Positions 1-64,000 of a DNA stretch of 64,000 bases are shown in pieces. The position numbers and the translations under genes were made by a program. Within the stretch, counting starts at the first letter, position 1, and each line of letters opens with the position of its first letter. The stretch lies in the NCBI GenBank assembly GCA_016748015.1, contig JAAOMT010000009.1:2278200-2342199 (forward strand), given 5' to 3'. Origin of the DNA: Geosiphon pyriformis uo1. Taxonomy: Eukaryota; Fungi; Glomeromycota. Under the pieces are notes generated by a model. It did no database searches. It was given only the letters and a program-made list of their open reading frames with translations, and was not told where the DNA came from.

Positions 1-43
1 TTTCAATTATGTATTATTTTTTTCTCTTTTTCTAAGTGTAATA
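1..43 (-). repeat. Start of the 3' LTR of element D (continues off-window); PPT at 44-60
   Basis: Near-identical to 25304-25346. Preceded on the minus strand by the purine tract AAAAAAAAGGAGATAA, as at 57469-57484. Confidence 0.85.
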
Positions 44-57
44 TTATCTCCTTTTTT

Positions 58-705
58 TTAATATTGAGCTTTGTTGAAATTTCTTAATATTTCTTTTTGT
101 AAGAATTTCATAACTTCTTTTTCTAAGATTATTTTCTCTATTTTTTTATAGAGTTTTTCAAACTGGCTGTTGGTCATTCTTCCCTATTGATTAATAAATA
201 AGCTACTGATTTCTGGTTGTAATAGTATTTCCGAATAGTCTTAAAAGATAGTGTATATTTGGTAGATAGTTTTAATATATATACCCAAATTAGATTTTTT
301 TTCAATAAAAGTTTCTATATCTTGTATAATCTTTTGATCAAAGACTCTTTTGATTTGATTCATATACAAATTCTGGATCATTAATTTTTGTCCCAAATGT
401 TAATAGCAATATAAAACTGGAAATTGTTCTATCCATTGATCCCAATTTTCTGTTGTTACTTCTTTTGGTTGGACAATGACAGCTGGTTTTTTAAGAGTGC
501 TTTTTACTTTTTTAATAATTTTGTCAGTATTATTGCTAATTTTTTTGTGTATTTATTGATATAATATAGTCTTTTTTCTTTCTCTTTTAGTGTTTTTATA
601 GTAGATAGTTTAATAATTAATTGTTATTTTCATGTCTGTTTGTTGTTAATTTATGGTCTAAAATAATTGTGGTGCTAGTTGGTAAATATGGTCTGGAATT
701 TCCAT
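58..705 (-). pseudogene. ORF3 of element D (unknown protein downstream of integrase)
   Basis: Starts MEIPDHIYQLAPQ; contains EITINY and YCYYxLGQ-like motifs; ends ...KAQY* at the PPT. Homologous to 39248-39907 and 56805-57471; in-frame stops. Confidence 0.7.
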
Positions 706-738
706 TTTTTTGTTATTATTGTCACATGTTTTGGTTCC

Positions 739-1670
739 TTATATATTGTTTTGGTAAATTAAATCAACATGTTTTGTTTCAATATATATGATTGGTTTCA
801 GATCTTGTGGAATCTTATTTGGTCTTACTAGTGTTTTTTGTACTCCCAGTTATAAAATACTATTAGTAGATAATAATATGTAGTAATAGAATTTTAGTTA
901 ATTACTATATACTGCTTTGGTTAAGATTTTGTTGTCCTATCTTAATTTATAAGTTCCATTTTCTAGAATTTTTTTAATATAAAATGGTCCATTCTATTTG
1001 GGATTAAACTTCTCACTCCATTGTTTTTTTACTTTAGTACAATGTAAAAGTATTTTGTCTCCAATCTTAAATTCGACTAGTTTATTTAGTAATTGGTTAT
1101 CATGCTGTTTTTTTTGTTTTTTTTGTGACTTTTGGATATTATTAGCTGCTTTTCGTTATTTGTTTTCCAAAGTTTCTATTAAGTCATATGTTTTTCTTAA
1201 TAATATTTCTTAGAAATTGTCTTCTGTTATTGGTTTTGTTAGATATATGTTAATTTCTAATTCAACTGATAATATTGTAATTCTATTATATACTAATTTA
1301 AATGGTGTCACTTGTGTGATATTTTGTTTTATTGTCCAATAAGCAAATAATACTAATAGTATAAATAAATCTCATTCATCCTGGTTTTCTTGGCTGATTT
1401 TGGCAATTGCTTCACATAATGTTCTGTTAAACTTTTTAATCAAACTATTTGTTTGTAGATAGTATGATAATGATAATAGTTTTTTGATTCCAAATTTTTG
1501 ACTTAATTCTACTAGTGTTCTGTTTACAAAATAAGTTCTTTAATCTAATAGTAATTTTTTTGAACATCTATGTTAACAAATTAGATTTTAATGAACAAAT
1601 TTGGCTATGGATTCTGCATCTGCTCTTTAAATTGCTTTTGCTTTTGGCCATTTTGTAAAATAATCTATAG
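739..1670 (-). pseudogene. Integrase C-terminal two-thirds, element D
   Basis: DYFTKWPKAKAI, degenerate NGLVERFNRT and GPFYI motifs; cut at 1670 by the LTR of E. Confidence 0.85.
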
Positions 1671-2621
1671 TGTTATCTGAGTAGAAAAAACCATAAAGCT
1701 ATGAGAAAACATGACAAAGAAACATAACAAAAAAAATGTGGTACAACTTAAGATAACATAAGACAAACACAAACAATAGCTAGCAATAACAAGTAATAGC
1801 TAGCAATAACAAGCAATAGCTAGCAATAATGAGCAATAGCTAACAATAACAAAACAATAGCTAGCAATAGTGAAGCAATTGAAAGCAATCCTGTAAAACC
1901 AAAAGAATATATAAAAACAAGTAATTGTAGAAGTTAAAAAGACAGTTAATTAGCAATCAATTTTACTTTGTATTATACTTATCATATATTCATAATCAGA
2001 AATACAATAATTATCAAAAACAAAAAAATCCAATTTACTAATTCATGTTTTCCAATCTTATGGATTTTAATTAAAATTAAAATCAGTATTTCCTATCTTT
2101 GTTTTGGGACAGATGTCATTAGCATAAATGTTTTAAACCCTTAATAATTTGGACCAATTGCTCTTGATCATAGCAATTGATAAGAATTAATTTTTTTCTT
2201 TTTTTTTCTTTTTTTTTCTTTATTTTTTTTTTCTTCTTTTGTTTGAAGTGACAACATAAGAAAATTGACTGTCTTGGAATAGATTTTATAATAGTCTGGT
2301 AAAAAAGGGAAGCTCCCCCTAAGTTTTGGATATTAATGTTATCTTGGTAGCTTACCAGAAGGGCAAAAAAACAATGCTAGACCTTAACAACTGTACTCAT
2401 TAGTGTAGAGAAAAAAGCTCACATTTATAAAAAATGTTGTAATCAATAAAAAACAAACTTTGTGCCTTATAACCAAAGAACTCAGTGAGTAGACTCACAT
2501 CCAGAAATAGATCTTCAAAGACTGATAATACTAACACTATGGAAAGGGCAGACAATCTTGAAAGACCCAAAAATAAAGCACCAAACATTACTATTATATC
2601 CTACCAAGTTTATTCATAATA
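1671..2621 (+). repeat. 5' LTR of element E (951 bp)
   Basis: Begins TGTTA exactly where D integrase is cut and ends 2 nt before the PBS; TATATAAA near 1908. Confidence 0.8.
1772..1872 (+). repeat. ~20-bp tandem array (AGCAATAGCTAGCAATAACA x ~5) in U3 of LTR E
   Basis: Direct inspection; lies just upstream of the TATA box. Confidence 0.85.
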
Positions 2622-2623
2622 TT

Positions 2624-2640
2624 TGGTGCTTCCTGTGAGG
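2624..2640 (+). promoter_or_regulatory. Primer binding site of E (probably elongator tRNA-Met)
   Basis: TGGTGCTTCCTGTGAGG, 2 nt after the LTR end. Confidence 0.8.
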
Positions 2641-2682
2641 TTATAAATCCACAGAGACAAAACACTCTAAAGATACACAAAA

Positions 2683-5600
2683 GTGATGACTATTAGAACA
2701 ATAAGAAAGAACCACTCCTCATATGGAAGAACACTATTTCAATATTTTCGAAAAAATTTAGGAATATTAGTAGAAACCACCATTGCAGAAAGTAATTTTT
2801 GCAATTATATCAACATGAAAATCAACTGTTTGTTAGGCCATGTAACTGATACAAAAAGACTTGGAGAACAAATCCATCAAAGCTTATTAAGATACTTAAC
2901 AACTACCACTACTTGAGCAATCACTAAAACTCTATGCATAGTCGATACAGACATTAAATACTATGTGATAAAACAATTCTCTTAAGTATAACAACTAGTA
3001 AAATCTAATCCGAAGGAATACAAGTATGGATCCAATAATTCTGCAACTGCTCAAGACAAGTTTATAGTCAACAAAAAACCAAGGTTTCTCTTTCCAACAA
3101 CTCTTTCATACCATCAAACACTCCAAAGTAAAATTGTATTCAACTCACCCCTGGAAACCCAGTTAGAAATACCACGAACTTCTGAAAATCCACACCCATG
3201 GGATCAATACAGTTAGACCAAATTACTAGAAGAATATGGATCACTGTTTGGAAATCTTACCTCAACAGCTGGTCAAACAGAAGGAAACACATCAACTTGA
3301 GAACAATCACCAGCACAAAATTCAGCAGAATTAGCATCTCTCCTAATGGAAGAAACAGCTATCTTACAATCTATTAGTTTAAGCAACAAAGAAAAACAAC
3401 CAGAATTAGCACTCAAATATGCAGACACCAATTTTCTTAAACATAACCAGTAACATCTTACTCATTAACTGGATCATGGCTTACCAAAATATCACTAAAT
3501 TAGAAAAATTTTCAGGGAAAGAAGACAACATGTATTTGTAGATTGCGGAAGCCAAGAAAGCAATCACCACCAACAACTGGGATGATGACAGAGCTATTCA
3601 AGTGCTGCCATTCTTTCTAACTAGAACTGCAAACTTATAGTATCAAAGTCTTGCAGAAAAACCAATCGATTTTAACACCTTTAAGCTTATCTTTTTATGA
3701 TACTTTTGTGATTCTAATACTTTAATCCAATTGCAGAATCAATTCAGCATAATTAAACAAAAAAATCATAAAGCAGTAACTATTTATTTCAAACAATTCA
3801 ATCAAATTCTTTGTCAAATATTAGCTATCAAAAGAGATTACTACACCACAGCACAAGTTCTTAATCAATTCATTAAAAAATTGCAGAGTAGTATTCTGAG
3901 ATTCATAAAACCCTGTTATTTAACCAATTTACAAGATGCTATTGCTCTTGCTTGTGATTTTGAGTCCACAGAACAAGAAGTGAACCATACCCAAACTATT
4001 AATTTAGCCATTAATAAAATCTCTGATATCAATGCAAAGATAACCCAATTAAGTGAGAAATTAACTCAGAAAATTAAGGAATTCTTAGCCGAAACCACAG
4101 GAACTTACCAACCACCACAACAGAAAAAAAATAACAACAACAGCAAATACCCATAGCAACAGAACCATCAGCAACAGCAACAACCTTGAAGATCTGATCT
4201 TTACAACTGTTACTACTGCCAGAAACTTAGACACATTGCCTGTGACTGTAGAAAGAAGATAATAGACCAAAATCAAAGAAACCAATACTGACAACCAAGA
4301 TATTAGCAAAACATGGTATCCCAATATTCCATCCCTCAAAATTAACCACCCCAGTACACACAACAAATCCTGTACACTCAACTACCACTCCAGAATTATT
4401 ATCAACCACCACCAATAATACAAGCAATCCCTTACTATCAAACTCTTCCTTACAGCCAGTTCAGACCTTGAGCCATAGACTATATTCAGGAATAAAGGAA
4501 TCCCAACAACAATTAGGTGCAAACCAACAGCAGACTGTCTCAACCAATCTCTTGTGGTCCTGCTTAATTTTGATCAGCACCAACTGGATACTCGAATTAA
4601 GCTTTCTATCTCAGTCTTATGGAAAACCAGGGTTTTGATAAATTTACATCTGTAGAAGAGAGGGATATAGAACAAATCTTTCAACCTTCCAAGCAAACAA
4701 AAAGCAATATCCCACCAGCCACTATTACTGAAGACACCACCTTAGCCACCATATTTCTTTTTGACATTGATAATTTGAACACTCATAGCCTTTTTAGTAG
4801 AGCAGCCATCAATCAGAATAAACCAATAATGGCCCTATATACTGATGCCAGAGTCAGAAAAATAGACATTAAATTAATACTAAATAGTAGATCAGCCAGT
4901 AATATAATCATGAAACAGCTCATGGACCAACTAGGTTGCTGAATAGACCATGCTGCTACTGCCCAGATTATTACAGCAAATGGAAACACAAAAACTCCAA
5001 TAGGAGAAATTGACAACTTTCCCTTCAAGATTAATGGAATCCAGATTCCTACCAAAGTACTCATTATGGAAGCTACTCAATATCAAGCTCTGGTAGGAAA
5101 TGATTGATTGTCAAAAGCCAATGTTACTCTTAACTAGAACACCCAAGAACTTCAACTCACGTTTAATAAACAGTATGTCCAAGTTTCAGCTATGTGCAAA
5201 CACTGTAAAACCAACATATTAAGAAACCCCTTATTGAATTCGAAAACACATCACTATTACTGACCATCAAAATCTATCAGGTTTTATGAGCAGATGATTA
5301 TCAAACTGAACTACCCCCACTACCAATCTGGGAAGAAAAAAAAAAGGCAGAGCTGAAAAAAAATTCCAATCGTCATCACTAGAATACGTAACCTCAGACC
5401 AAAGAAATTTATTTTACCAATCTCCAAAACTAATATGTGTTGATTGTGGAAAAAAGCTATCCACTATGGATGCATATATCAAAAACAACGAAAAATGGCC
5501 CACCACTACCAAATACTACTGCAGACTTTGTGTATTAGAAAAATTTGAATGACCAAAACAACAAAGCAAGTAAAACAATACACTGTGTCTCGCATGTGAT

Positions 5601-6189
5601 GAAATCCTGCCTGATGAAAGACTCTGGAATAATGTGCTTGGTAAAGGAGGAACATATGATGAGGCTTGTCAATATACCATATTAATTAATAATTGGATAC
5701 AAAAGGGAACCTCTATTGAGGATGCTTAGAAATGAGCACTCAATAGACTGGACAGTTATCCACACAATAATTACAAAATCTGGAGAATAGCAAGTGCCAA
5801 AACTAAAGATGCCATGTCTGAAGAGATACAAGAAATTAAGGACAACCCTTGGACACCCAAATATAATGGACTTAACTACTCCACAGATGATTTTTTCACA
5901 GATAACTCCAATGCATTTCAGAACTGATATTAAGAATTGGTCCTGATCTGAAAAGAGCAAAAACAGCAGCTAGTTGATCTAAATACCAAACTATGTAATT
6001 ACTACTTAATTTCTTATTACTTTTAATACTGTAATTAGTGTGATCTCATGTTTAATCCATCTCCCAAAATCCTATATCCAATCACCAAATTACCTGAGCC
6101 TAAGAAAGAAAAGGAATTACTTGCCAAGAACATGTTATTTCAGGAGCCAAATTAGACTACCAAAACAAAGCAGTACCTTGCCTATCTCT
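2683..6189 (+). pseudogene. gag-protease-Cys-rich region of E
   Basis: Capsid MAYQNITKLEKFSG at 3476; CCHC knuckle CYYCQKLRHIACDC near 4208; protease LILNSRSA (DSG decayed) near 4873; CxxC clusters at 5430-6045. Confidence 0.85.
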
Positions 6190-6357
6190 GAAGACAGATT
6201 CTGCTAATAAGTAGTTGTTGGTTAATCTTAAGTGTTGACAAAATAAGAATTTGGCAAATTCTAAATGGTTTGTCTTTATTTTTTCTGATTCTGCCACTTT
6301 TAGATAGTTGTTGTTGGTATTGGTTTTCTGTAGGATTATATTTTACAGAGAGCACCA
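6190..6357 (-). pseudogene. PBS (6357-6341) and first ~36 codons of gag of element D
   Basis: TGGTGCTCTCTGTAAAA, then GTG GCA GAA TCA GAA... homologous to the B gag start at 47615. Confidence 0.8.
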
Positions 6358-6359
6358 AA

Positions 6360-6790
6360 TGTTATAGATGATTATTTGGGATCTCAAATCAAATAACAAA
6401 CCCATAATTTGGTGTTTAATAACTGTTATAATAGTAGTATCTAAAGATTTTCATGATCTAAAGGTTTTGAGTTGGAGTTCTTTGTATAATAGACAGAAAT
6501 TCAATGGTTGTTTTATAAGTAGCCTCCTGGAATCACAATTCCATCAAATTTTTTTCTTTAGCATGGTGGTCAGTTTATTCTGACAGTTGTATTTTTTTGG
6601 TAAGCTATCCTTAATTTCTGAGTTCTCTACTCTTATTTCTGGGTCTTTTACCAAGCTATCTTTGATGTCAATAATTCAATGCTTAATCCTTAATTAATTA
6701 GTAAACAACAAAAGAAATAAAATACAAATAAAAATCAAAGAAATAAAATATAAGCCAAAACAATAAAATTAGTATTCCATTAATAGCCAT
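6360..6790 (-). repeat. 5' LTR of D, U5/R segment
   Basis: Homologous to LTR B (38372-38820); ends ...ATAACA before the PBS. Confidence 0.8.
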
Positions 6791-7763
6791 TGTTACCAGA
6801 GGTTTTTGGTCTCTTTTCTTGAATGTTGTTTAATGTTAATTTGCTGTGAATTTATGTTCTCAGGAAGTAGTTGGACTTCCAGTAACTGAATTTATTTTCA
6901 AATTATCTCCTATAATTTGAACTGCTGGACTTATAAGTAGAATGGCCAATTCTATGCCAGTTACTTTGTGTAGTTATATTGTAGTAAATGTCAACTTTTT
7001 CTTAAGAATTGCTTATCTGGAAGCTTATTAAAATGTGTAATTACTTTGCTGTGAAAGTCAACTCTTTTACAAGAATCTTGTCTGTAGGCTATCCTAATGA
7101 TTATAATAAGAAAAGAAAAGAAAAATAAAAAAAATGTAAAAAAAATAGAATTGTATCAAGAAAAATGTTTTCTATCCAGGCCTAAGGTCACTAACAGATT
7201 ATTGAAATTGGTAGCTAATCAATTTCAAACCATTAGTTTTGTGTTGAGAAAATTTTAAGTATAATAATCAAAAGATTTGGTTTTCAAATATTTAATTTTT
7301 ATTTGATTTTGTAAAAGATGATTTATTTCAATTAAGATATCTAAAGTAAGATACTATGGTAAGATATTATGAAAAGATATATTTTCTTAAAGAAAGAAGC
7401 TCTTCTTTTATACAATTTATTGTAGTACTAGTCTTTGAACTTACACTTTTCTCTTTGCTACAATTTGAGTAAACTAAAGATACATTTTGGCAAACTACAA
7501 GTTATTTCACTGAACTATTGATTATTTCGGCCAATTTTCATTAATTTCGACGAATTTTGACTATGTTAAATGGTTCAAAGTATTGTGTAATTTGATCATC
7601 TTAATTTCTAGAATACAAATTGAATTATTGATTGAGTAATGATTTTTGATAATTTGATTAAATAACAAGTGATAATCGAAATAATAATAATATATGCTAA
7701 TTAATAATAGGAATTATAAGGGTAATTTTATGCTAATTAATAGCTAGAATTCTACTGGTAATA
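6791..7763 (-). repeat. 3' LTR of A1
   Basis: Collinear with 15681-16653; inverted termini TGTTACCAG...CTGGTAA(C/T)A. Confidence 0.95.
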
Positions 7764-8432
7764 TAATCTTCTCCTTAAGACTGAGCTCTATTGAAGTCCA
7801 AGCACTATCTGTAATATTAAGATAGTAGTCCAAGATAATTGAAGTAATCTGGTCTGAAAATTGTTGAAATTTCAGTTCTGTGAGCTTTTCAATGTATTGA
7901 ATCTTCATTGAGTGAAGTATTGGGTTTTATAAGACGTTTTTACAAGTGTTAAATAAATCATAGAGTCTAAATGCTGCTCTGTTGGTCCAGCTGTTGTTTT
8001 GAATTCATTGTGAATTTGTTTTTATATAGCCTCAAGAGTAATGTTGGTTGCTTTAAGTTCTAGTTTTCGTTCATAAAGTGTTTTTCCAATATGAAAATAT
8101 CTATATATAAGGGTATGTTTATTGTTCTGTTCATTAAAGAATAATAGAAGTTTTTGTTGCATTGTGGCATTTGGTGGAATATTAATAAGAGCAGATAAAA
8201 GGTTTTCTTTTAGTGTTTGCTTCAAAAGTTCTGGTAATTGATTTCCAGAGTAACTTTTTGTTTTTTTTCTATAGAGGTGATAATTCTGAAAATTATTTAC
8301 TACTGGGGCTGTGGTTTTTTTCTGAATATAATTAATTTGACTTCTATTAATCGTTATGGATAAGTCAAAAAGTGTTTTCAAAGCTAACATTAATTTTTGG
8401 GATATTTGTTGAATATTTCGGGAAATAATCAT
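7744..8432 (-). pseudogene. ORF3 of A1
   Basis: MIISRNIQQISQKLML...YRYFHIGKTLY...RLYDLF...KLTELKFQQF; runs through the PPT into the LTR. Confidence 0.8.
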
Positions 8433-8555
8433 GATAAAAATGACTAACTAATAAACAAAAATTTGAAAAAAAATAAAGAAAATTATTTTTTGGGTATAGA
8501 GTTTTTATTTGTTTTTGGGTTTGAATGTTTCTTCTAATTATTTACTATTTTTGAT

Positions 8556-9972
8556 TTATGTTTTGTATATTTTAAAGAGGTTTGTAAAAGTGTTCAAGTT
8601 TGGTTGTTGTTCTATTATAATTATTGGTTCTAAATTTTGGAAAATATCTTCAGGATTAATTAAAAGAGAATGTGTACCAATTTGTGGAATTAATGATTCA
8701 AGATTGTTTCTAAAGTAATAGTGTTTCAATTGATTTCTATGTGCAACTTTTGCTAATACTTTGTTATCAAGTCTTAACTTGTATGATCCATTGTCCAGAA
8801 TTTCGTAAATATAAAATGGTCCATCCCATTTATGTTCAAATTTTCCACTCCATTGTTTTTCAGCCTTAGTTTTGTATAAGAAAACTTTATTTCCAACTTT
8901 AAATTTGTTGGTAACTGGTAGCAGTTTGTTGTCATGTCTTTTATTTTGTAGGGCTTGGAAGTGTTCAATATGAGTGGCTGCTATGTGTCTTTTTCCTTTC
9001 AATGTACTAAAGAGAGTGTAGGCTCTTTTTTGGAGTGTTTCTTGAAAGTTTTCTTCATTGATTGGTTGCACTGAATATGTTTCCACTGTGGAATTAATTG
9101 GTAATGTTGTTGTTTTTCCATAAGTAAGATCAAATGGTGTGTGTTTCATAGTATCTTGTTTTAGTGTTCTGTATACTAGTAACACTGATGGAATAAAGAT
9201 ATTCCATTTTTGCTCAAAATTTGTTGAGACTTTGGCTAAAGATTCACACAATATTCTGTTGAACTGTTCTACAAGTCCATTTGTTTGAGAGTAATAAGAT
9301 AATAATAAAAATCGTTTGACATTGAATCATTCACAAATTTCTTGTATCAAGTTGTTCACAAAATGTGTTCTTTGATCTGATAAGAGTTCAATTGGGCATT
9401 CATGTCTACAAATAATGTCTTTATAGATGAAATTTGCTACTGATTTTGCATCTGCTCTTTGGATGACTCTAGCTTCAGACCATTTGATAAGATAATCTAT
9501 TGCAACTACAATATAACAATTTCCTTGGGTTGTGATAGATAATGGTCCGATTAAATTAATTCCCACTCTGTCAAAAGATTGTCCAAATTTGATTGGATTT
9601 AAAAGTTCTGTGAGGCAAGTTTCTTCTTTTCTTTAACAACTATCACAAAATTCTATATATTGTCGAATGTCTTTTTACATGTGAAGCCAAAAATAATGTT
9701 TAAAGGTTCTTTGGATTGTTCTATTTCTTCCCAAATATGCTGAAGATGGATTTGTGTACATGTTGTATAGAATTGTTTTTTTTTTCATTTTCTTGTACTA
9801 GTCTGAGTGATTGGTTTGGGTTTCTATGATTCTTGTAATAAATTTTGTTGTGGTGTATAAAATATTGTTTGAATTGATGTTGTAATTGATGTTTTTCACT
9901 TGGAAACCAATTTTCTGATATGGTAAGAGTCTCCAAATAGTTTTTAATGTTGTTGTAATTTCTGAAATCCAT
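8556..9972 (-). pseudogene. Stand-alone integrase ORF of A1
   Basis: Own ATG (MDFRNYNNIKNYLE); GINLIGPL, LLSDQRTHF, NGLVEQFNR and KWDGPFYI motifs. Confidence 0.9.
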
Positions 9973-10029
9973 TGTTGTTTGTTTATTTTATTGGTAGATT
10001 AGTGAGTTGTAGTGGATTTGTTGTTGGTA

Positions 10030-15635: not shown

Positions 15636-15680
15636 TTTGAATATATTGTTGCTGTGTTATTTTTATGAGAGAGCACCAAA

Positions 15681-39907: not shown

Positions 39908-39931
39908 GTTTTTATATATTCTTTTGATGGA

Positions 39932-47615: not shown

Positions 47616-47655
47616 TTTTAAATTTGTGTTGGTGCTGGTTCTCTATAGGATTATA

Positions 47656-47672
47656 CCTCACAGGGAGCACCA
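47656..47672 (-). promoter_or_regulatory. PBS of B, TGGTGCTCCCTGTGAGG (elongator tRNA-Met-like)
   Basis: Complement CCUCACAGGGAGCACCA resembles the 3' end of eukaryotic elongator tRNA-Met. Confidence 0.8.
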
Positions 47673-47674
47673 AA

Positions 47675-48546
47675 TGTTACAGATGACTATTTCTGGTGTT
47701 GGATTAAATAACAAACTCATAACTTGGTGCTCAAATCTAGTTATAGTTGATAGTAATCTGAAGGTTTATGTCTGAAAAGTTTGTATCCGAAAGGTTTGGT
47801 TGAGTTCTTTGTATAATAGACAGAGATTCAATGATAATAGTTTTATCCATAGCTTCTCGAAACTGCAGTTTTGTCAATTTTTTTCTCAGCTTGATGGCTG
47901 GTATTCCTCCTGGTAAGCTATCTTCAATCGAGTCTTCTACCCTTATTTCTGGGTCTTTTACCAGTCACATTTATCCTGATATTAGTACCCTGTGCATTAA
48001 TCCTTAATAGAGTTAGTAAACAACAATAAAATTAAAGCAAAAAATAAAGAAAAGAAAAGAAAATAAAGAAAGAAAAGAAATAAGCCAAGGCAATTTGCAA
48101 GTTAGTATTCCGTTAATAGCTATAATTAAGAGCTATTGTTCTAGCATGGTTAAGTATCAATTACTATTAACATGAAGTGTTAATAGTGGCAGCAGGTTTG
48201 AGATAACAAACAGTTTATTTATTTGTAATTTGGAAAGTTGTCTAGATGAAATCTAAACTGAAAGGTCTGTCTTTTTAGCTTCTAATTCTACTGCTATATA
48301 TACATAATTGAGATTCCTCAATTTCTTAATTCTTCACAACAGGAATCTTGGGATTCCTGGAATTCTGCAATTTCTTTGAGAGGAATCTTAGAATTCTGGA
48401 ATCCTGCAATTCCTTGTGAGAATCCTGTAATTCTTGAAATCCTGCAATTCCTGAGAGAAATCCTGGAATTCCACATTTTACTACATCTACTTCTGATTGG
48501 TTAATAACTATGCTAATATATATTTTCTATATTTCTATGAGTAACA
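47675..48546 (-). repeat. 5' LTR of B
   Basis: Pairs with 38372-39234; adjacent to the PBS. Confidence 0.95.
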
Positions 48547-49205
48547 ATGTGAGCACATTGCTCAAGAAATCATAGCACATTACTTGAAAATGTGAATAAT
48601 CTCATAAAACATCAATTATGTATATATAATGGTAGCATTAAAAGAAAAAAAGAAAGACCTCTCAGTTTAGATTTGATCTAAGCAATCTTTTACATCACAA
48701 ATATCAATAAATAATTATTTAATTATCTTAAATTCACTTCTTACTATTAACACTTTATGTTGATAGTAATTAATACTTAACTATACTGGAACAATAGCTC
48801 TTGATTATGGCTATTAACAGGATATTAGCATTTATTGTCTTGGTCTATTTCTTTATTTTTTTTTATTTTTCTTTGTTATTTTTGTTTACTAATTTATAGA
48901 GAATTAAGTGCTGAATTATTGACATCAAGAATAGCCTGGTAAAAGACCCCAAAGAAAGGGTATAACAATGAAAATTTAAGAATAGCTTACCAGAAGAGCA
49001 TTTCTGCCAGATTACTAACCACCATGCTGAGAAAAAAATTGGGCAGAATTACAATTTCAGAAGGCTACTGAAACAATTATTGAATCTCTGTTCATTATAC
49101 AAAGAACTCTACCAAAATTTTCAGATATCAACACTATTATATTAGTTGAATACCAAGTTATGGGTTTGTTATTTGCTTTGAAACCCCAAATAATTACCTG
49201 TAACA
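48547..49205 (+). repeat. 5' LTR of C (first ~125 nt missing)
   Basis: Aligns to the 3' LTR from ~57609; ends CCTGTAACA before the PBS. Confidence 0.9.
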
Positions 49206-49267
49206 TTTGGTGCTTTCTGTGAAGTATAATTCTACAGAGAACCAACACCAACAACCATTATTCAAAA

Positions 49268-52200: not shown

Positions 52201-55200
52201 ACATATAGTCCTTATATTACACTCCAAACCCAAACAAATTACTGATAACCCAAACTTGTATGCATCAATTGTGGTAAGAAATTGTTATTAATGGGTGCAT
52301 GCTGTGGCAATGATAAAAAATACTCAACAGCAACAAAGTTTTATTGCCACCCATGCATCTTAGAATGTTTTGAATGACCAAAACAACAAGAAAAATGAGA
52401 TAACAAATCTTGTTTCACTTGTGGAGAAACTTTTTTCAATGAAGGAATGTAGAACAACATTCCTGGAAGAAGAGAAACATGCAACAAATTGTGTTAATAC
52501 ACGATTCTAATAAGTAACTGGATAAGAAAAGAGACACCAATAGAAGCAGCCTGGAAAAGAGCAGTAAAATGTCTGGATGGATGTTCACATGATGATGACA
52601 AAATCTGGTAAATTGCACTTGCCAAAATTAAAGAAATGTTATTAGAAGAAATAAGAATGATCAAAAACAATCTACTAGAACTCATAAAACTTAACTGGGG
52701 CTCAAACTCAGAGATTATCCTAGAGCTTATGGACCCAGAACAATTTTATAAGTACTACCAAGAATTAGCACCCACTAGAGAGAAATAAGAGCAATGGTTG
52801 GAAGAAATAAACACAAGACTATGTGACTATTGTTTGATCCCATATGACTTCCAATATTGTAATGAGTATAACCTCATTTACAATTCACCACTATGCATAA
52901 TCTATATGATTCCAGAAAAAAACAAATCAATCAGCAGCTGTGCATCAAAATCGGAATCAACTTTCAATTCTGATTCAAACTTTAACAATGATGACAATAA
53001 AAACAATGGTTCCAGCTCCACTTAAAATGGCAATGAAAATAACAACAATTTGGACTTCAATTCAAACCCCAAAACATACATCACACTTCTTGATCTCTCC
53101 AAAGAGCAGAAACTCAAATAGTACAGTAACAACAATAAAGATATTATGCCAGAATGAGCACATAATACAGATGCCAGGTTTGATCTAAGATATCCAGAGA
53201 AAAATGCCATCAAATTAAAACCACATTCATGCATTTGCATTAATCTGAAAATAGCACTGGAAATTCTAGCAACAATAGTTCAATTAACATCTAAGAGTAG
53301 TTTAGCAAAAAAGGGAATTAATATTAGAGGAGGAATAATTAATGCAGAATATGTAGGAAATATCATTGTAATACTACAAAATGACTTAGAAAAGGCCTAC
53401 ATCATAGAGCCAAATAAAAAAATAGCACAGGCAATATTTCTGTTTTTGGTTAAAATAGCTAAATTAGTATCAATAGAAAACAGAAAAGAATTAGAAATTA
53501 CAGCTAAAGAGATACAAAAATTCAGATCAATGGGTAAAATAGATGTACCAGTTAATTTGGCAGAAGAAAAAATTGTTGACAAGGGAGAAATTATCTCCAC
53601 CCATTAATCAATTTCTATTCCACCATATGACTGGTATATGGTAATTATAAAAAGAAAAATGAAGGATCAGATTCAGATTATTGAGACAGAAGCAACACTT
53701 TATGAATTAGGAGAAATTGGATTAGTCAATCTACACATACTAGCCAAAAACCACAGTCACATCAAAATTTCCATTTACAACAACATAAAAAACATTATTG
53801 AAATACCAGAAGGAATTATCATTGGATATTTAACCACTGAAATTGAAGATCAACTGCCAAACACCATTCCAGACTTTCCATAATTGTGTAGATATGTAGA
53901 TATCACATCTCAAACAATATACGGATGAAAAAAATGTTATCTGCTCCAACCAGAACAATTGAAACAGATAAACTTAAGAAATTTAGACCTACTACAATAT
54001 ATGCAATTTAAGATGTTACTTAACAACTTCAACAACATATTTGCAAGCAAAAATGAATTTGGAAGAACTGATATAATTCAGCATCAAATTAAGACTGAAG
54101 ATGCAATACCAATTAAACAAAGAGCATACAGAGTACTACCAGCCAGCCATGAGATTATTCATCAAGAAATCAATTGAATACTTGACAACAGGCTAATTTA
54201 GTTATCTATGAGCTCATAGTCATCACCAGTAGTACTAGTCTGTAAAAAAAATAGGAAAATCCACTTTTGTGTGGATTATTAGAAACTAAATAGAATAACA
54301 AAAAGTAATAGCTACCCAACACCAAAGATCCAAGAGCTGTTTGACACTTTCGGAGGAAAGAAATAGTTCTCAACTTTAGACTTAAACAGTGATTACTGAC
54401 AAGTAGCCATGAAACCAGAAGATAAAAAGAAAACAACTTTTACAACACAAGAAGAGAATTTTGAATTTGAGGTTATGCTATTTGGCTTGATGAATGCTCC
54501 AGCCACATTCCAATGGCTTATGGAAATTGTCTATACCAGATTGCTATAGAAATCAGTAGTCATATACTTGAATAACACCAATGTGTTCTCAAAAACATTT
54601 GACAATTATTTGCATTATCTTCAACAAGTATTTGAAAGACTCAGATAAGCAGAATTGAAATTAAATGCAAACAAGTGCTTCTTTGACAAAACAGAACTTA
54701 AGTTTTTGGGACATGTTGTAAGCAAAAATAGTATCAAAACAGATTCAGATAAGATTGAGATTATTAAGAACTTTCCAGTACCAAATAATCTTACAAAATT
54801 AAGAGTATTTTTGGAATTTGCTGAATATTACTGCCACTTTATCAAAGACTTTTTTAAAATAGCTCAATCACTACATCAATTACAAACAAAAAACACAAAA
54901 TATGAATGGACAAAAACTCAGCAAAAAGCTTTTAATACATTAAAAAGAAAGCTTATTCAAGCTCTAGTATTGATCTATTCAGATCATAGTAAACCATTCA
55001 TAATTACAACAAACACATCCAGTCAAGCATTGGGAGTAGTATTATTTCAGAAAAGACCAGATGGATAAGAACATTCAATAACTTATGCCAGTAAAAGCTT
55101 AAGTCCAGCTGAAAAGAACTATAGAACTCCAGCACTAGAACACTTAGCTATCTATTGGACTGTCATCAAATGGAAAGAATACTTGAGTCAAAAGTTTGAT

Positions 55201-55368
55201 GTGTACACTGATCATAAAGAATTGACTTCAATTTAAAAGCAAGAATTTGAAGATGATTACCATGCCAGATAAAAAATAGAACTTTTACTATTTAATTATA
55301 CAGTACATTACAAAAAAGGAAAAAAAACCAGAAATGCTGACAGATTGTCACAAATAAAACAAATCTAA
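49268..55368 (+). pseudogene. ORF1 of C: gag-PR-Cys-rich-dUTPase-RT-RNase H
   Basis: Capsid Met at 50154; CHYCGKQEHLQFEC; protease near 51590; dUTPase ~53110-53540; RT; RNase H; TAA at 55366-55368. Confidence 0.9.
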
Positions 55369-55398
55369 AAACATTTTAACACAAAAATATAACAAAAA

Positions 55399-56780
55399 AT
55401 GAATATACAAAAATACCAACAACTCCAACATTATATAAATACTCAATTGTTCAAGAAGAAATTATCTCAAAAAAAACAAAACAACATAAAACAACAATTA
55501 AAATATTTTATTAACCATCAAAATATACTTTACTGGAAGAACAAAAGAAATTCAAATCAACCAACTAGAGTAATTACAGAATCAGACAAAGAAACAATAT
55601 TATTCAACATGCACTCAGATCCAATGACAGGACATTTTCACAAAGAAGCAACTATAAAAAGAACCAGAAAAAGATACTATTGGTCATCTATGTATCCAGA
55701 TATTATTCAATATGTTCAAAATTGTGATGTTTATCAGAAAAGAGGAGGAATAAAATCCAGTAAACTATTAAGACCAATCAAAGTGGGACAACTATTTAAT
55801 TGTATTGGAATTGACTTAGTTGGACCATTAACCATAACCAGCAGAGGCAACAGATATATTGCAGTCGCCATAGACTATCTCACAAAATGGCCAAAAACAA
55901 AAACCATTTAAAGAGCAAATGCAGAATCTGTTGCCAAATTCATTCATCAAGATTTGATTTGTCAACATGAATGTCCAAAAGAACTATTATCAGATCAAGG
56001 AACTTACTTTGTGAATAAAACATTGACAGAATTAAGTCAAAAATTTGGAATAAAAAGACTATTATCATCACCATACCATTCACAAACAAATAGGTTAGTT
56101 GAAAGATTTAACAAAACACTGTGTAAAACAATAGCCAAGATCAGCCAAAAAAACCAGAACAAATGGAATTTGTTTATACCATCAGTATTATTTGTTTACA
56201 GAACAATAGAACAAGACACTACACAAGCAACACTATTTAAATTAGTATATGGTAGAACAACAACATTACCAGTTGAGATAGAAGTTAGAACATATTTAAC
56301 AGAACCAATAACAGAAGAAAATTTTCAAAAAACATTGCTAAGAAGAACATATGACTTAATGAAAACACTAGAAAACAAACAGCAAAAAGCAGTTGATAAC
56401 ATTTAAAAGTCACAAAAAAAACAAAAAAAAAGACATGATAATTAACTAATAAATAAACCAGTTGAATTCAGAATTGGAGACAAAGTACTTCTACATTGTA
56501 CCAAAGCAGAAAAACAATGAAGTGGAAAATTTGACCCCAAATAGAACAGACCATTTTACATAGAAAAATTCTAGGAAATAGAGCTTATAAATTAAGATGG
56601 AATAACAAAATCTTAGCCAAAACAGTACATAGTGATTGACTAAAACCATATTACTATATAGTGTTGCCATTCACCAGTAATATTCCACAATTAGAAGTAC
56701 AAAGAATACTAGTCCAACCAGATAAGATTTTACGAGATCTGGAACCAATCATAATAATTGAACCAAACACATCAAATTGA
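55399..56780 (+). pseudogene. Stand-alone integrase ORF of C
   Basis: MNIQKYQQLQHY; MHSDPMTGHF; IGIDLVGPL; LLSDQGTYF; LVERFNKT. Confidence 0.92.
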
Positions 56781-56804
56781 ACAACCAAAAGAGTATATAA
56801 AGAC

Positions 56805-57471
56805 ATAGTATATATGACAAAAGCAACAAAAAAAAATAGAAATACTAGATTATATTTACACTTTAGCTCAATAATTGTTTCAGGCTTTAAGTCAACAGCA
56901 AGTAAACATGGAAATTATTATCAATAACCAAACAATCTGTTATCAAAACACCAAACAAAAAGGGAAAAAACCACCATATCAGCAATCATAGAAACAATTA
57001 ATAAACTGGTCAGATAAAATAATAAAAAAAGTAAAGAACACTTTTGGAAAGATAACCATTACAGTTCCAACAAAAGAACTGGTAAAAGAAAATTAGAACA
57101 AATAAATAGACCAACTTCCAATACTATACTGCTACTATCAATTGGAACAAAAAGTAGATATTCAAAAGTTATATCTTGACAAATCCAAAATAATTTTCAA
57201 TCAAGAGATAGTCTGAAACATTGAAGACATTATTAAAAAGAAAACAAACTTAACACTACACATTAGGACCATTTATTAACTACACATTATATTTCAAAAC
57301 TACCCAGAAGTATTATTATACTCTAACATAAAAACAATAACCATCAACCAATAGAGAAGAATAAACAACTTACAAATTGAAGAAATAAAGAATAAGATGA
57401 AACAGATACTACTGAAAAAAGAAGTATTCAATATAATTCAAAATAAGAATTTCAACAGAGCTCAATATTAA
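56805..57471 (+). pseudogene. ORF3 of C
   Basis: MEIIINNQTICYQ, YYCYYQLEQ, NNLQIEEI...NFNRAQY*; homologous to ORF3 of B and D. Confidence 0.75.
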
Positions 57472-57484
57472 AAAAAGGAGATAA

Positions 57485-58077
57485 TATTACTCATAAAAAA
57501 AAACAGATATAGAAAATAGTAAACCAATAGGAAAGTAGTAGTTAGCATGTGAGCATATTGCTCAGCAATGTGGAGCAATGTTAGAAAATTAGGGCACATT
57601 GCTCAGCAATGTGAGCATTGTTCAAGAAATCATAGCACATTGCTTGGGAATATGAGTGATCTTATAGAACATCAATTATGTATATATAGTAGTAGCATTA
57701 AAAGGAGAAAAAAGAAACCTCTCAGTTTAGATTTGATCTAAACAACCTTCCACATCACAAATATTAATAAATAATTATTCAATTATCTCAAATCTACTTC
57801 CCATTATCAACACTTCATGTTGATAGTAATTGATACTTAACCATACTGAAACAATAGCTCTTGATTATGGCTATTGATAGAATATTAACATTTATTGCCT
57901 TGGCCCATTTTTTTATTTTTTTTATTTTTTATTATTATTTTTGTTTACTAATTTATGGAGAATTAAGTGCTGAATTATTGATGTCAAGGATAGCTTGGTA
58001 AAAAACCCCAAAGAAAGAGTATAATAATGAGAATTTAAGAATAGCTTACTAAAAGAGCATCTCTGCCAGATTACTGG
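57485..58077 (+). repeat. 3' LTR of C (interrupted by A3)
   Basis: Follows the PPT; matches 48547-49017; CCAAT near 57524; TATATATA near 57681. Confidence 0.9.
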
Positions 58078-59046
58078 TGTTACCAGTAGAATTTTAGCTA
58101 TTAATTAGCATGAAATTACCCTTATAATTCCTATAATTAATTAGTATATTAATATCATTTCAAATTATCATTTATTATTTAATCAATTATTACATATCAC
58201 GATTCAATTAAAATAATCTAATTAGTATAACAGAAAGTATGATGATCAAATTACACAATACTCTGAACTTTGTAACATTCTAAAATTCGCCGAAATTTAC
58301 AGAAATTCGCCGAAATTATGAATAGTTTACCCAAATTAATCAATAGTTCAGTGAAATAACTTGTAATTCATCAAAATGTATCTTTAGTTTGCCGAAATTT
58401 GAGCAAAGAGAAAAAGTGCAAGTTCATAGACTAGTACTACAACAAGTTGTATAAAAGAAGAGCTTTTCTCTTCAAGAAAATGTATCTTACTTTAGATTTA
58501 TCACTTAGAACCATTCCTACACACACAAAAAGAAATAAATATCAAATAATTCGAAAAACCAAATTCTTTAATTATTGCACTTGGAAAATCCTCAAAACCC
58601 AACTAACGTTTTGAAATTGATTAGCTACCAATTTCAGTAAACTATTAGTGACTCCAGGCCTGGATAGAAAACGTTTCCCTTGATAAAATCCTATTTTTTT
58701 ACATTTTTTTTATTTTTCTTTTCTTTTCTTATTAAAATTATTAGGATAGTCTACAAACAAGATTCCTGTAGAAGAGTTGACTTTCACAGCAAAGTAACTA
58801 CACATTTTTAGTAAGCTTCCAGATGAGCAATTCCTGGGAAAGAGTTGATATTACTACAACGTAACTACATAAAGTAACTGGCAAGGAATTGGCCATTCTA
58901 CTTATAAGCCCAATAGTTCAAATTATAGAAGATAATTTGAAGATAAATTCAGTTATTGGAGGTTTAACTACTTCCTGAAAACGTGAATTCACAGCAAATC
59001 AACATTAACAACATTAAAAAAAAGAGACCAAAAACCCCCAGTAACA
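58078..59046 (+). repeat. 5' LTR of A3
   Basis: TGTTACCAG...CAGTAACA; reverse-complement homologue of 33278-34247. Confidence 0.93.
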
Positions 59047-59092
59047 TTTGGTGCTCTTCTACGGAAATAACACAGCAACAACAAACTTCAAA

Positions 59093-62000
59093 ATGGCAAT
59101 TACACCAGACACAACAACTCTAGAGTATTATCAATCAATTTATACCCATTGCAAGCAGAGATTCAACATCCCAGACGGAATTGAAATTGTTGAAAGAACA
59201 CTCTACCAATACATTGAAAACTGTATCAACAATTATCTTCTTAGAAATTACAATATTTTAAAAGTGAGAAGCAACCTCTACAATAATTTAGTACACTATT
59301 CATGATTGGAAACTGAAAACCTTAACAGTGAAACACTTGCCACCTACTTTCAAGAACTTAATTACAACATTATCAAGTATTGCAAAGAAAAATACCCAGT
59401 ACAGTCTAAATACTCTTTTGACTTTGAATCAAAAACAGAAACAGGCAACAAAGGCAAAAAAAAGTGAAACAACACTCAAAAACTGCTTCAAACACTCCAA
59501 TACTACCAAAGACAACTGTCACACACTTGCAAACACCTGAACAAGGAACCAGTGTCAAATTACCACTTTCTATCACATCATTTCCAATTTCACTTGTTTG
59601 ACCACAAACACCAAATTCACTACTTAACTATTTTTCCAGACCAGAAGATTTTCAGTCATCTAAAAATTCTACTCAACAGCAGAAACCTATATTAACAAGC
59701 ACCAATATTATTGAATACTTGCAAGAAAACAAAAGTGATCATTCAGAAAATTTGGAAAGTAAAAAAACTGAATCAAAACAAGGAGAAGTCACAGAAAATG
59801 AAGAGGAAATGGCAACTGCTTATATTGCAAAGATTCCAGAATTCACAGGTGAAGATAATGATACCAGTCCTCAAGAATGGCTTGACAAAATTCAAAAAGC
59901 AGAAGATGCAAATGGTTGGATTACAGCAAGAATGCTTAAAGCAATTCTCTACTTTCTCCAAAGAACAGCAGGAGAATGGTTTGAAAATTTAGAAGAACTA
60001 TTTGAAAACTGGCAAACATTCAAAGATGTTTTTCTACAACAATTTACCAACAACAATACCTCTATCACTCTCAGAAACCGCTTTTGCAATATCAAACAAA
60101 AAACATCTAAAACTGTTATGATCTATCTTGAAAGATTTAAACTTCTCAAACAAATCTGACAATTAAAAACCAATGACTACTATTCTGATGCTCAAATTCT
60201 GGATCAGTTTATAGCAGGGTTAAAAGACAAACTGATTAAAAAAGTCTGTTTACATGCTCCAGCAGACTTAGCAACTGTTATTAAACATGCAAAGAATTAT
60301 GAAATTGCTATAAAAGAAGCAAACCACACCAAACTTGTTAACTTGGCTATTGGAGAAACCAGCTCAGCAGCTGAAAAAAAGATAAACCAACTCACAAAAA
60401 AAATTGAAAGCTATTTTACAAACCAACAACAACAGCAGCAACAACCCCAAAAATATCAACCACTATAGTGACACAATCAAAACAACTTTGGACCACTATC
60501 CAACAACCAACCTCAAAATTGTCACTATTGTGGAATTCCAGGACACTGGAAACAAGATTGCAGGAAACTACAAAGAAACCAACAAAACAGGAGTAATCAA
60601 TATTACTCTTTATCACAACAATCTTATTACCAACCCCCACCACCAACTTATTATTTACTAAGATCACAAATTCAAAACAGCTATTATCAACCAGTTCCAC
60701 AACCAATTCAACAACAATATCAACAACCTTTACCAATTCAGCAATTTTAGACACCACTCACTCAACAATATCAAATACTAGCAAGAAGATTGGTTCAACA
60801 TAACCAATTCACATTCCAAAATCAATTGCAGAGTAACAACAACAGAATCAATCCAAATAACCAGTTGGTTCCCCGAAATTCTGGTCAGCAAAGACCCAAT
60901 TACTATCACACTCAACCCAGTTATCTTACAATACCAGAGGAATCGGATTTTCAACAAACTGCATTTTCTGAAGGTGAAGTTGCAGTACCAAGATCAAACC
61001 CTTTTAACCACACCATTCCACCAGCTCAAATTGCCCAAAATGCCAATCTGTCAGATATATTTCCATTTGAATTTGAAGCAAATGAATTACCATTTCTGCT
61101 TAGTAATGCAGCAGTCAATGAACAGAAAACAATTACTGCTATGTACACAGAAGCTACAGTGAAAGAAAAACCCATTTGCTTAATCTTAGATAGTGGATTG
61201 GCTGAAAGTATTATCACTTACCAGCTGATGTAACAACTCAAACAAAATGTAGACAGACCAGCTCAAACAGTTATTGTCACAGTTAATGATATGAAAAAGA
61301 CTCCAGTAGGAGAAATTAATGATTTTCCCTTTACAATTGATGGAATCACCATTCTAGTTAAAGTTCTTGTTATGAATGCACCCCAATACCAAGCTCTAGT
61401 TGGAAATGATTGGCTTTTCAAGGCCAATGCAAACCTGAACTGGAAAACTCAAGAACTTAAAATTTCATACCAAGGACAATATACCATAGTATCTGCAACT
61501 TGTAGTATCTTTAACAAACAATCAGAAAAAGCTCCAGTATTTGAATTTGAAGAAGAGAAGAAAATGCCACTCACTGAAACCTACATGGCTCTTGGATCAC
61601 CATCCAATTGGGCTGAGGAAACAGAACAAGAGATTTTTGAAGAATCAAGAAGATAGAAGAAAGTTAGATATTCCACACCAGAACCATGAAAAGAACCACC
61701 ATACATTCCACTAAAATGCAAAGATTGCAAAAAGAAGCTTTTATTTATGAGAGCCTGTATTTCCCCAGAAGAGGAATATGAAACTCGTACTTGCTACTTC
61801 TACAAGACATACCATAGAGAATTATTTAGATCCTTAAAGAGAAATGGAAAATGGGACAAAACTCCTTGTCTTACTTGTGGAGAAAGGCTACCAGAAGAAT
61901 GCAATTGGATTGATGTAGTAATGAGATGAGGAATATGTGATCAAACCTGTCAATATGCTCTATTAATTTCGGAAAAAGTCAAAAGAAAAACACTATTTGA

Positions 62001-64000
62001 TGCAGCATACAACAGTGCTCTCAATAAACTTTACCACTACCCTCATGATACTGAAATAATTTTTGACTTAGCAATAGCATTGATTAATAGAGCCACCCAA
62101 GAAGATGTCCACCAAATAAAAGAAGCTGAATACATTGAGTATACCATAGAATTAGCTGGATTTGATTATAAAGATGAAGTAGAAACCTACCACCAAATTG
62201 CAAGCCACACATATCCAACCAAAGAAGCTCAAATTCAATGATTAGAGCAAATGAACATTCAGTTGTGTAAAGAATGTATTATGCCTTGTAATGACCAATA
62301 ATGTTTAGAATGTTATGTTCTTAGCATTTCTCTGCCAGATGAGAATGATGAAAATGAAATCGAATTTAGAGTATTTGAACTAGTAAAAAAACTACCAACC
62401 ACCCCTATCTATTTTCTTAAAAAGCAACCACCTCTACAACTTAAATATTTTGACAACCATGGCCAAGGAATCAGACCAGAAAAAGCACACGAAATTGATG
62501 CTGGATATGACCTAAGATACCCAGGAAAAGATACTTTGGTTTTCCAACCAAAGTCCTTAACAAAAATCAATTTCAAAATTGCTCTTGAAATTCCACCAAG
62601 AGCAATGATTCAAATTGCCTTCAGATTATTATTGACAAGCAAAGGAATCAATATTAGAGAAGGAGTTATAGATGCAGGATACACTGGAGACATTACTATC
62701 ATGTTACAGAATAAGACAGACAAACCATTCAAAATTGAACATGCTGAAAAAATTGTTCAAGCAATTTACTTATCCTTAATCAATATTTCGGGTTTACAAT
62801 CAGTAAACAACAGAGAACAATTGGGAAAAAGTGAAAGAGGAACTCAAGATTTTGGTTCAACTGGATGATTTACAGTTCCAGTAAACATAGCTCTTAATAC
62901 ACAAAATAAATCTCACCAGATTCTTCAACTTTTCCAGCCAATTACTATTTCACCTTTTGAAAAACATCACGAAATTTACACTTGCTCAAAACCCACCACT
63001 ACACAACAAATCTTTGAATCCAATAAACAAATCTGTTTGAAGCATAAAATCTCAATTCCAAATGTTTATATTTCCAAAGGAATGAAAAAATTTTGAGTTA
63101 CATTTTACAACTCCAATAATTACTCTATTGTCTTATTAAACAAACTGGAGATTGGAATCATACACAGCAATATTTTTCAAGATGAAAACCCTCAAATTGT
63201 CTTTAATTTCATCGAAATTGTAAAGCACACTCTATTCCCAAATCCAAATATCATTCTCACTACTGAAAACTACCACTTTTTGGAAGAAAAACTCTCTCAA
63301 ATCAACATGAATCCCTTAGAACCTCAACAACAAAGACAATTGAAACAATTGATAGCTGAATTTGCAGATATATTTGCAAAAGACAACAATAACCTAGGAA
63401 AAACGGATATGGTTCAAAATCAGATCCATACAGAAGATGCTCCACCAAAACATCAGCAAGCTTACAAAGTGCCACCTGCCAGCCACCAATTCATCAGAGA
63501 AGAAGTTCAGAGAATGCTCAATAACGGATTGATTCAACCATCAAGAAGTCTTTGGGCCTCACCAGTAGTCCTTATTAAAAAGAAAAATGGAAAAATCAGA
63601 TTTTGTGTTAACTATCGCCAAGTAAACAGTGTGACTATTGGAGATGCCTACTCTCTTTTAAGAATTGATGACATGCTAGATGCTCTAGAAAAAGCCAAGT
63701 TCTTCTCAACTTTAGACTTGGAAAGTGGATACTGGCAAGTCGAAATGGATTCAAAAGACTGATCCAAAACAGCATTTACCACTTAGGGAGGAAACTATAA
63801 GTTCAATGTTATGCCTTTTGGACTCTGCAATGCACCAGCAACATTTCAGCAACTTATGAATGTTGTATATAAAGGGCTCTTGTGGCAATCAGTAGTTGTC
63901 TATCTTGATAACACTGATGTATACTCACCAAGCTTTGAGACTTATCTTATCCACCTGTGAAAAGTTTTTCAATGATTACGGAAAGCAGGATTGAAGTTAA
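59093..64000 (+). pseudogene. ORF1 of A3: gag-PR-Cys-rich-dUTPase-RT (truncated by window edge)
   Basis: MATAYIAKIPEFTG at 59809; CHYCGIPGHWKQDC; LILDSGLA; dUTPase; WASPVVL; MPFGLCNAPATFQ; YLDNTD. Confidence 0.92.
62440..62865 (+). pseudogene. dut: dUTPase domain of A3
   Basis: DAGYDL, GVIDAGYTG, KIVQAI, RGTQDFGSTG. Confidence 0.92.

Follow-up and report, generated by a model that had tools for sequence, protein, structure and literature searches.

To our knowledge, the integrase of all known retrotransposons with long terminal repeats (LTRs) and of all known retroviruses enters the particle as part of Pol. In the parts of PMC2864245 consulted here, fungal Gypsy elements are mostly described as one fused open reading frame (ORF), or as two (gag and pol). 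A dUTPase between protease (PR) and reverse transcriptase (RT) is already known in such elements from the same parts, which describe it for PosPlaTy3-5 of Postia, also cite dUTPase-bearing elements of Phanerochaete and Tuber (Tmt1), and mention no separate integrase or comparable third ORF in any of these. In this report, we analyze 64,000 nucleotides of Geosiphon pyriformis uo1 (contig JAAOMT010000009.1, positions 2,278,200 to 2,342,199; hereafter, the window), which contains nested, mutation-killed Ty3/Gypsy elements, as detected by self-comparison and Pfam. Where the relevant parts survive, these elements have three genes, namely ORF1 (Gag to RNase H), an integrase gene, and ORF3.

The window elements resemble other Ty3/Gypsy elements (Metaviridae) in their TG...CA LTRs, primer-binding site (PBS), polypurine tract (PPT), PR-RT-RNase H-integrase order, and integrase with H2C2, a DDE core, and a GPY/F region. 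They differ in that integrase has a gene and a start of its own, a split found in 5/5 window copies and 52/52 relatives. They also differ from the Postia, Phanerochaete, and Tuber elements, as far as those are covered in the parts cited, by a Cys-rich region of ~240 amino acids. We read these elements as members of a Mucoromycota lineage of Ty3/Gypsy elements with three genes and, from sequence comparisons, give about an even chance to the proposal that re-initiation or internal initiation after the ORF1 stop yields integrase from the full-length RNA. The three-gene layout was not found described in the literature searched, with Repbase, GyDB, and most subscription papers outside its scope. 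The portions of PMC11952901, PMC3248453, and PMC5751038 covered here treat abundance and classes and not this layout. One supplement file each of PMC2864245 and PMC2836005 has nothing on it; their other supplements and figures may bear on novelty.

By the 80% rule, the window elements form six or seven families, which belong to only two deep lineages (B versus C/D/E/F) with integrases 64-68% identical. Copies B1 and C1 are full length and D nearly so; B2, B3, E, F, A2, and G are partial (Table 1). The order within ORF1 is Gag-PR-Cys-rich-dUTPase-RT-RNase H, in a single frame. In B3, one frame of 1,466 codons covers capsid, CCHC knuckle, protease, Cys-rich region, dUTPase, and RT, and contains 16 stops, compared with 74 and 117 in the other frames. 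The corresponding counts for 955 codons of ORF1 in D are 19 versus 91 and 81; B2 and C1 are similar, and these three copies carry the single frame on to RNase H. Every domain junction is bridged in frame by one copy or more, and none of the frameshifts recurs in all copies of a region. These counts agree with the claim of an earlier note on this DNA that capsid to RNase H occupy one frame. That note had also described a hard stop, and a TAA indeed lies at a homologous site after RNase H in 5/5 copies that hold the junction. In the 242 contigs of run X1 aligned to the B2 junction, no alternative letter reaches 20% at this stop.

The integrase ORF starts 30 to 64 nucleotides farther on, and all three frames relative to ORF1 occur. 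The proposal of an integrase ORF with its own start stands: the separate ORF is present in five of five copies, and its first codon is ATG in three (B1, C1, and D). In Pfam searches, the decayed window integrases score above the cut-off for Integrase_H2C2 and below it for rve and SH3_Tf2-1, whereas intact homologues have both rve and H2C2. The top sequence match of an integrase profile in the Protein Data Bank (PDB) is Ty3 Gag-Pol (E 2e-47). Chromoviruses were ruled out, because Pfam detects no chromodomain in the window integrase ends or in the domain lists of the 120 homologues listed.

Intact relatives are found far beyond this genome. A DNA-level locus search that is free of length bias identified 80 metagenome loci (L numbers below), of which 76 have an integrase start and 52 also an RNase H end. 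All 52 are split, with no continuous gag-pol-integrase frame in any, and the integrase begins with ATG in 50. Gaps at these junctions range from -20 to +943 nucleotides, frames are distributed 12/20/20, and the ORF1 stops are 32 TAA, 11 TAG, and 9 TGA. At three loci, open ORF1s of 1,370-1,621 codons without integrase encode a CCHC knuckle, PR, RT, and RNase H, and two of them score for capsid. Among the 120 integrase homologues listed (253-807 amino acids, a range that leaves out fused forms), the same start Met is present in 100; 19 start further in, and one has five extra residues. Named sources are Rhizophagus irregularis and R. clarus, with one cluster from Entrophospora. A Rhizopus delemar protein of 1,398 amino acids, known from the protein alone, ends at RNase H, and Rhizopus is, judged by this similarity, probably the source of a lineage member. 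Searches of viral contigs gave only three weak, unrelated-looking matches. The relatives bear out the earlier idea that this lineage is diversified, carries three ORFs, and expresses integrase in a manner of its own.

Phylogenetic trees were built from database hits only, and B1 was left out of the RT trees. An RT-RNase H tree was computed from 127 rows, after 24 of 151 had been dropped (23 Cordylochernes gene models and one from Lolium); in it, all 44 rows that are split or end at RNase H fall to the same side of a branch with SH 93. The RT trees of 65 rows separate 33 of the 34 fused rows from the others, with SH-aLRT values of 93 and 98. The integrase tree has 117 rows, and a branch with support of 100 unites 86 split rows and a single fused one. 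The window elements group with locus L013 (support 99), which has a spacer of 24 nucleotides and the closest ORF3. A single origin of split elements is likely, but not proven, from these sequences.

Spacers of at most 210 nucleotides are depleted in ATG, with 13 instances compared with 42.9 expected; none of 2,000 shuffles was as low, and 33 of 39 spacers have none at all. The window spacers are short, G-poor, A/C-rich, and unstructured (minimum free energy 0 to -0.3 kcal/mol). In 28 of the 80 loci, mostly within one subclade, we identified a 40-nucleotide RNA motif that occurs once each just before the integrase ATG, its end mostly lying 0-14 nucleotides away (for example, L017:293-337). The model was built from 24 of these 28. 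Across the alignment, 96% of cells are paired, and seven of ten pairs exhibit two-sided changes, with slid controls far lower. There was no Rfam match in the 11 loci tested. A second subgroup (L001-L010, L014, L044, and L047) has spacers of 74-98 nucleotides in which a GGA...TTAAC motif recurs before the integrase ATG. At nine of 52 junctions, the integrase start overlaps the ORF1 stop or lies 2 nucleotides from it, TAATG being among the arrangements. Stop-restart translation occurs in RNA viruses and in the SART1 retroelement, although we know of no instance for the integrase of an LTR element. The short overlaps of these nine relatives are like those systems, and the spacers of 30-64 nucleotides in the window copies are unlike them.

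Under the proposal of re-initiation or internal initiation, ribosomes would restart, or be recruited, just past the ORF1 stop on the full-length RNA. The solution would differ by subgroup, namely a stop/start overlap, the 40-nucleotide structured RNA, or, in the window, an unstructured A/C-rich spacer. Inefficient re-initiation would keep the ratio of integrase to Gag low; in other elements, a gag-pol frameshift sets this ratio. Free integrase would then need a non-covalent way into the particle, for which ORF3 would be the best candidate helper, although this is speculative.

Several points weigh against this proposal. Every window copy is dead, with many stops made by transitions, and the first codon of integrase is ATA in B2 and E. 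Because no ATG variant is listed for the B2 site in the contigs of run X1, this ATA is not established as a decayed ATG. The window has neither a stop/start overlap nor the RNA motif (the best match, at 19 bits, is in RNase H coding sequence), and therefore its restart signal is deduced from relatives. Those relatives were found with a profile of stand-alone integrases. Seven spacers longer than 210 nucleotides are not poor in AUG (82 versus 69 expected), and some long gaps look like premature stops in the ORF1 tail (L024 compared with L026). In eukaryotes, re-initiation past an ORF of 1,400-1,900 codons is normally very inefficient. The monophyly that was suggested for the layout holds insofar as split elements cluster in RT and integrase trees, and each has one fused exception: P0254, a long-branch plant gene model, lies inside the split rows of the 65-row RT trees, and P0272, a single ORF of 1,530 amino acids, lies inside the split group of the integrase tree. 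Finally, depletion of AUG would suit the leader of a subgenomic mRNA equally well.

The last point favors the strongest alternative, which we place behind re-initiation or internal initiation and yet consider a substantial possibility: the layout is real, and integrase and ORF3 are expressed from subgenomic RNAs that arise by splicing, from an internal promoter, or because the RNA motif cleaves itself. Env in errantiviruses and Pol in foamy viruses are produced from subgenomic RNAs. Upstream of ORF3, B1 and B2 have T-rich tracts with TTAG behind them, several relatives have T-rich tracts at this place as well, and some gaps are hundreds of bases long, all of which would fit. However, YAG acceptors are not in excess before the integrase ATG (17 versus 20 expected, or 9 versus 14 in loci without the motif), and the nine junctions that overlap or nearly touch the ORF1 stop have the pattern of stop-restart.

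It is improbable that integrase is instead fused to RNase H by read-through, frameshifting, or removal of a spacer intron, with the Met being incidental. Intron removal between domains has a precedent in Ogre elements, RNase H and integrase share a frame in B1 and D, and P0272 is a close fused relative. Nevertheless, frames and stop codons vary freely over the 52 junctions, which argues against read-through or frameshifting. Moreover, most spacers have further in-frame stops, there is no conserved acceptor, and the start Met is kept among proteins that are only ~45-55% identical. Mutational decay of ordinary gag-pol elements, for which the abundant transition-made stops of all window copies might speak, is refuted to our near-complete satisfaction by the conserved Met and the 52 split relatives, as well as by the same TAA in both ~65% identical lineages, by splits in relatives with open ORF1s, and by codon-position selection on ORF3.

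All six copies with a 3' end have ORF3, and the ORF3s of the two lineages are homologous. The earlier description of a conserved third ORF abutting the PPT fits C1, D, E, and F, in which ORF3 ends just before this tract; in B1 and B2, the ORF crosses the tract and extends into the 3' LTR. Differences by codon position number 210/147/249, with the fewest at position 2 (p=3e-9, three non-independent pairs pooled; p 0.0015, 1.5e-5, and 0.038 per pair), whereas an LTR control is flat (71/76/77, p=0.81). ORF3 is under purifying selection. A protein search with ORF3 of one element gave 185 matches; the 120 listed are all hypothetical proteins of G. pyriformis, with 64-89% identity. In metagenomes, 36 loci have at least 700 nucleotides past integrase, and ORF3 follows in 27 of them, a count that is partly circular because the profile was made from 35 such ORFs clustered by BLAST. 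This metagenome-only profile also recovers the B2 copy and, with a best E of 5e-9, Geosiphon ORF3 proteins, and a narrow Geosiphon-only profile gives 35 matches, nearly all Geosiphon-like, plus two metagenome proteins. In other loci, the place behind integrase is taken by a NUDIX hydrolase (L046:1876-2889, E 2e-10) or by an ORF with a weak helix-turn-helix match (L009:6522-6944).

A structure model of ORF3 (the L042 member) is compact and all-helical, with eight helices and pLDDT of 93.8. None of 36 ORF3s has a membrane segment, defined as a 19-residue hydropathy window of at least 1.6 (maximum 1.32), or matches Pfam at E<0.01. There was no sequence match in PDB, Foldseek found nothing in PDB or BFVD at E<=0.001, and ESM Atlas gave just Mucoromycota hypothetical clusters or nothing usable. 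The best VIA score was Z 5.7, with MIT domains at Z 4.6-4.8, within background. The model therefore suggests a soluble helical protein without a matched fold, which is not proof of a new fold. Env was ruled out as its identity by the lack of a membrane segment and by the compact all-helical model. The phrase "retrovirus-like accessory genes" was thus an overstatement, because ORF3 lacks a membrane segment and resembles no Pfam family or known fold, and the searches did not point to a matrix domain either. Specifically, the N-terminal ORF1 domain of window copies, previously called matrix-like, has no Pfam match and no Gly2 for myristoylation.

The dUTPase is present in 5/5 window copies that span its region, with the expected motifs visible. 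Among relatives, it is lacking in 9/9 intact ORF1s that span PR-RT, was not detected by BLAST in any of the 80 metagenome loci, and occurs in one of 12 RNase H-terminated proteins. Because of this rarity, dUTPase, which had been regarded as a defining trait, is, as judged from sequence, the mark of a sublineage and a later capture. The function of the dUTPase family is to keep uracil out of DNA, and in this sublineage it would exclude uracil from cDNA. The Cys-rich region before the dUTPase gave a poor model (pLDDT 38.5) and, among the sequences collected here, matched Geosiphon-type proteins only.

Further observations concern the ends of ORF1. The first codon is ATG in one of five copies; in the other four, it is a GTG with good start context. 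A second Met lies just upstream of the capsid. By analogy, this arrangement could yield a long non-AUG-started form and a short form of Gag; glyco-Gag is a precedent for a long Gag form with an alternative start. The Gag N-terminus of relatives has a conserved His/Cys domain (H...C..C.P...F..FW.W) before the capsid and is unlike the window N-termini. ORF1 extends 219-343 residues beyond RNase H in L020, L026, L027, L030, L045, L058, L065, L067, and L078, mostly in the RNA-motif subclade.

In the parts of PMC2836005 consulted, a YPYY motif is described for Ginger1 and Athila/Tat, and Gypsy-1-I_RO is among the few others named. Compared by eye with this description, the integrase ORF starts a few residues before a Y-P-Y-Y pattern. 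It resembles YPYY integrases and Ginger1 in having this motif followed by H2C2, DDE, and GPY/F, as well as in TGT termini and a probable 4-bp target duplication. Ginger1 elements, according to those parts, have terminal inverted repeats, have no RT, and occur in four animal species, whereas integrase of the window lineage lies behind RNase H inside LTR elements. A Ginger1 DNA transposon was ruled out, given RNase H directly upstream in 52 of 76 loci (many others are short contigs) and the LTRs in the window. Because the motif is shared, Gypsy-1-I_RO may be a member of the lineage (PMC2836005, as covered here), and Repbase may therefore hold one. Troyka, another unusual LTR retrotransposon lineage, has a Gypsy-like domain order; it is unlike the window elements in its CG...CG ends, 3-bp duplications, mostly single Gag-Pol, lack of GPY/F, and restriction to animals (parts of PMC12440569). 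Membership in Troyka was ruled out, as none of its own traits fits.

The window as a whole is ~30% GC, with CpG at 0.15 of expectation. LTR termini are TGTTAC...GTAACA, followed by TT and a TGGTGC primer site, and a purine tract precedes the 3' LTR. Differences within LTR pairs are nearly all transitions (90 versus 2 transversions in B1, 81 versus 2 in C1), so LTR divergence of 10% need not imply great age. B1 is inserted in the LTR of fragment G. C1 borders internal sequence of B2 at one end and the LTR of D at the other, and no target duplication is present; because these flanks do not match, C1 is probably a recombinant that arose by ectopic recombination between two insertions. The RT coding sequence of B3 runs off the end of the window. 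About 8 kb (~16900-25100) is foreign to these elements and contains a LINE-like element and a probable Tc1 remnant; matching terminal repeats flank the former, which suggests that it inserted into the latter.

Table 1. Features of the window and groups of metagenome loci. Spacers are given in nucleotides past the ORF1 stop.
Feature	Position or loci	Strand	Details
Element F, fragment	27..1668	-	3' part of integrase, ORF3, PPT, 3' LTR start
F ORF3	705-58	-	ATG start; PPT next
Fragment A2, further family	2500..6150	+	Limits approximate; capsid, CCHC, PR, Cys-rich region
Fragment G	6190..6790	-	5' LTR end, PBS, first ORF1 codons (GTG 6297)
Element B1, full length	6791..16653	-	5' LTR 15683-16653, 3' LTR 6791-7763, 90.5% identical; probable 4-bp target duplication
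B1 ORF1	10030..15635	-	~1,870 codons, decayed; first codon GTG (15635); N-terminal domain, capsid, CCHC, PR, Cys-rich, dUTPase, RT, RNase H; TAA 10032-10030
B1 integrase ORF	8556..9972	-	ATG; spacer 57
B1 ORF3	7744..8432	-	Own ATG; through PPT into 3' LTR
Probable Tc1/mariner remnant	~16920-17650 (-), ~25070 (+)		Judged by eye
Decayed LINE-like element	17996-24700	+	Limits approximate; ORF1 with weak RRM match, then RT, RNase H
Element E, 5'-truncated	25400..32083	+	Start approximate; PR to RNase H, integrase, ORF3, PPT, 3' LTR
E ORF1 stop	29127-29129	+	TAA
E integrase	29161-30537	+	First codon ATA; spacer 31
E ORF3	30592-31248	+	PPT next
Sequence resembling gag-protease of another Gypsy family	32083-33280	-	Target of B2 insertion
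Element B2, 3' half	33280..38371	-	RT-RNase H, integrase, ORF3, 3' LTR 33280-34247
B2 ORF1 stop	36525-36523	-	TAA
B2 integrase	36466-35081	-	First codon ATA; spacer 56
B2 ORF3	34934-34228	-	Into 3' LTR
Element C1, full length	38372..48546	-	5' LTR 47675-48546, 3' LTR 38372-39234, 90.4% identical
C1 ORF1	41379..47615	-	First codon GTG (47615); Cys-rich 44509-43628, dUTPase 43627-43193; TAA 41381-41379
C1 integrase ORF	39932..41314	-	ATG; spacer 64
C1 ORF3	39248..39877	-	Stop directly before PPT (39247-39235)
Element D	48547..58077	+	Truncated 5' LTR 48547-49205, PBS, three ORFs, PPT, 3' LTR from 57486 interrupted by B3
D ORF1	49268..55368	+	First codon GTG (49268); ends TAA 55366-55368
D integrase	55399-56780	+	ATG; spacer 30
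D ORF3	56836-57471	+	PPT next
Element B3, 5' part	58078..64000	+	Inserted in 3' LTR of D; 5' LTR 58078-59046, PBS, ORF1
B3 ORF1	from 59093	+	First codon ATG (59093); Cys-rich 61690-62418, dUTPase 62419-62865, RT
Loci with 40-nucleotide RNA motif	L016-L018, L020, L021, L023-L027, L029, L030, L032, L035, L041-L043, L045, L049, L052, L055, L057, L058, L063, L064, L066, L067, L078		
Loci with His/Cys Gag N-terminal domain	L001, L004, L016, L017, L019, L026, L036, L047, L051, L065, L078		

A separate integrase means that this lineage must solve in some other way both translation from a polycistronic RNA and packaging, and the RNA element, with its covarying pairs, is a candidate for a new signal of translation initiation in fungi. 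The retrotransposons are plentiful: LTR content of G. pyriformis is 41% (PMC11952901, as covered here), and the 120 listed ORF3 homologues are annotated as hypothetical host genes. We also infer that surveys that rely on rve, for example PMC5751038 as far as that source was covered, could count such stand-alone integrases as Ginger DNA transposons by mistake. A broader reading, which we regard as doubtful, is that the lineage is ancient, Mucoromycota-wide, and truly tricistronic, with an integrase freed at the place where Ginger1 transposases begin, started by an undescribed 40-nucleotide RNA element or a stop/start overlap, and packaged via an ORF3 protein of unmatched fold. If true, this lineage would represent a polycistronic retroelement in eukaryotes and would be a candidate for connecting Gypsy integrases with Ginger1 DNA transposons.

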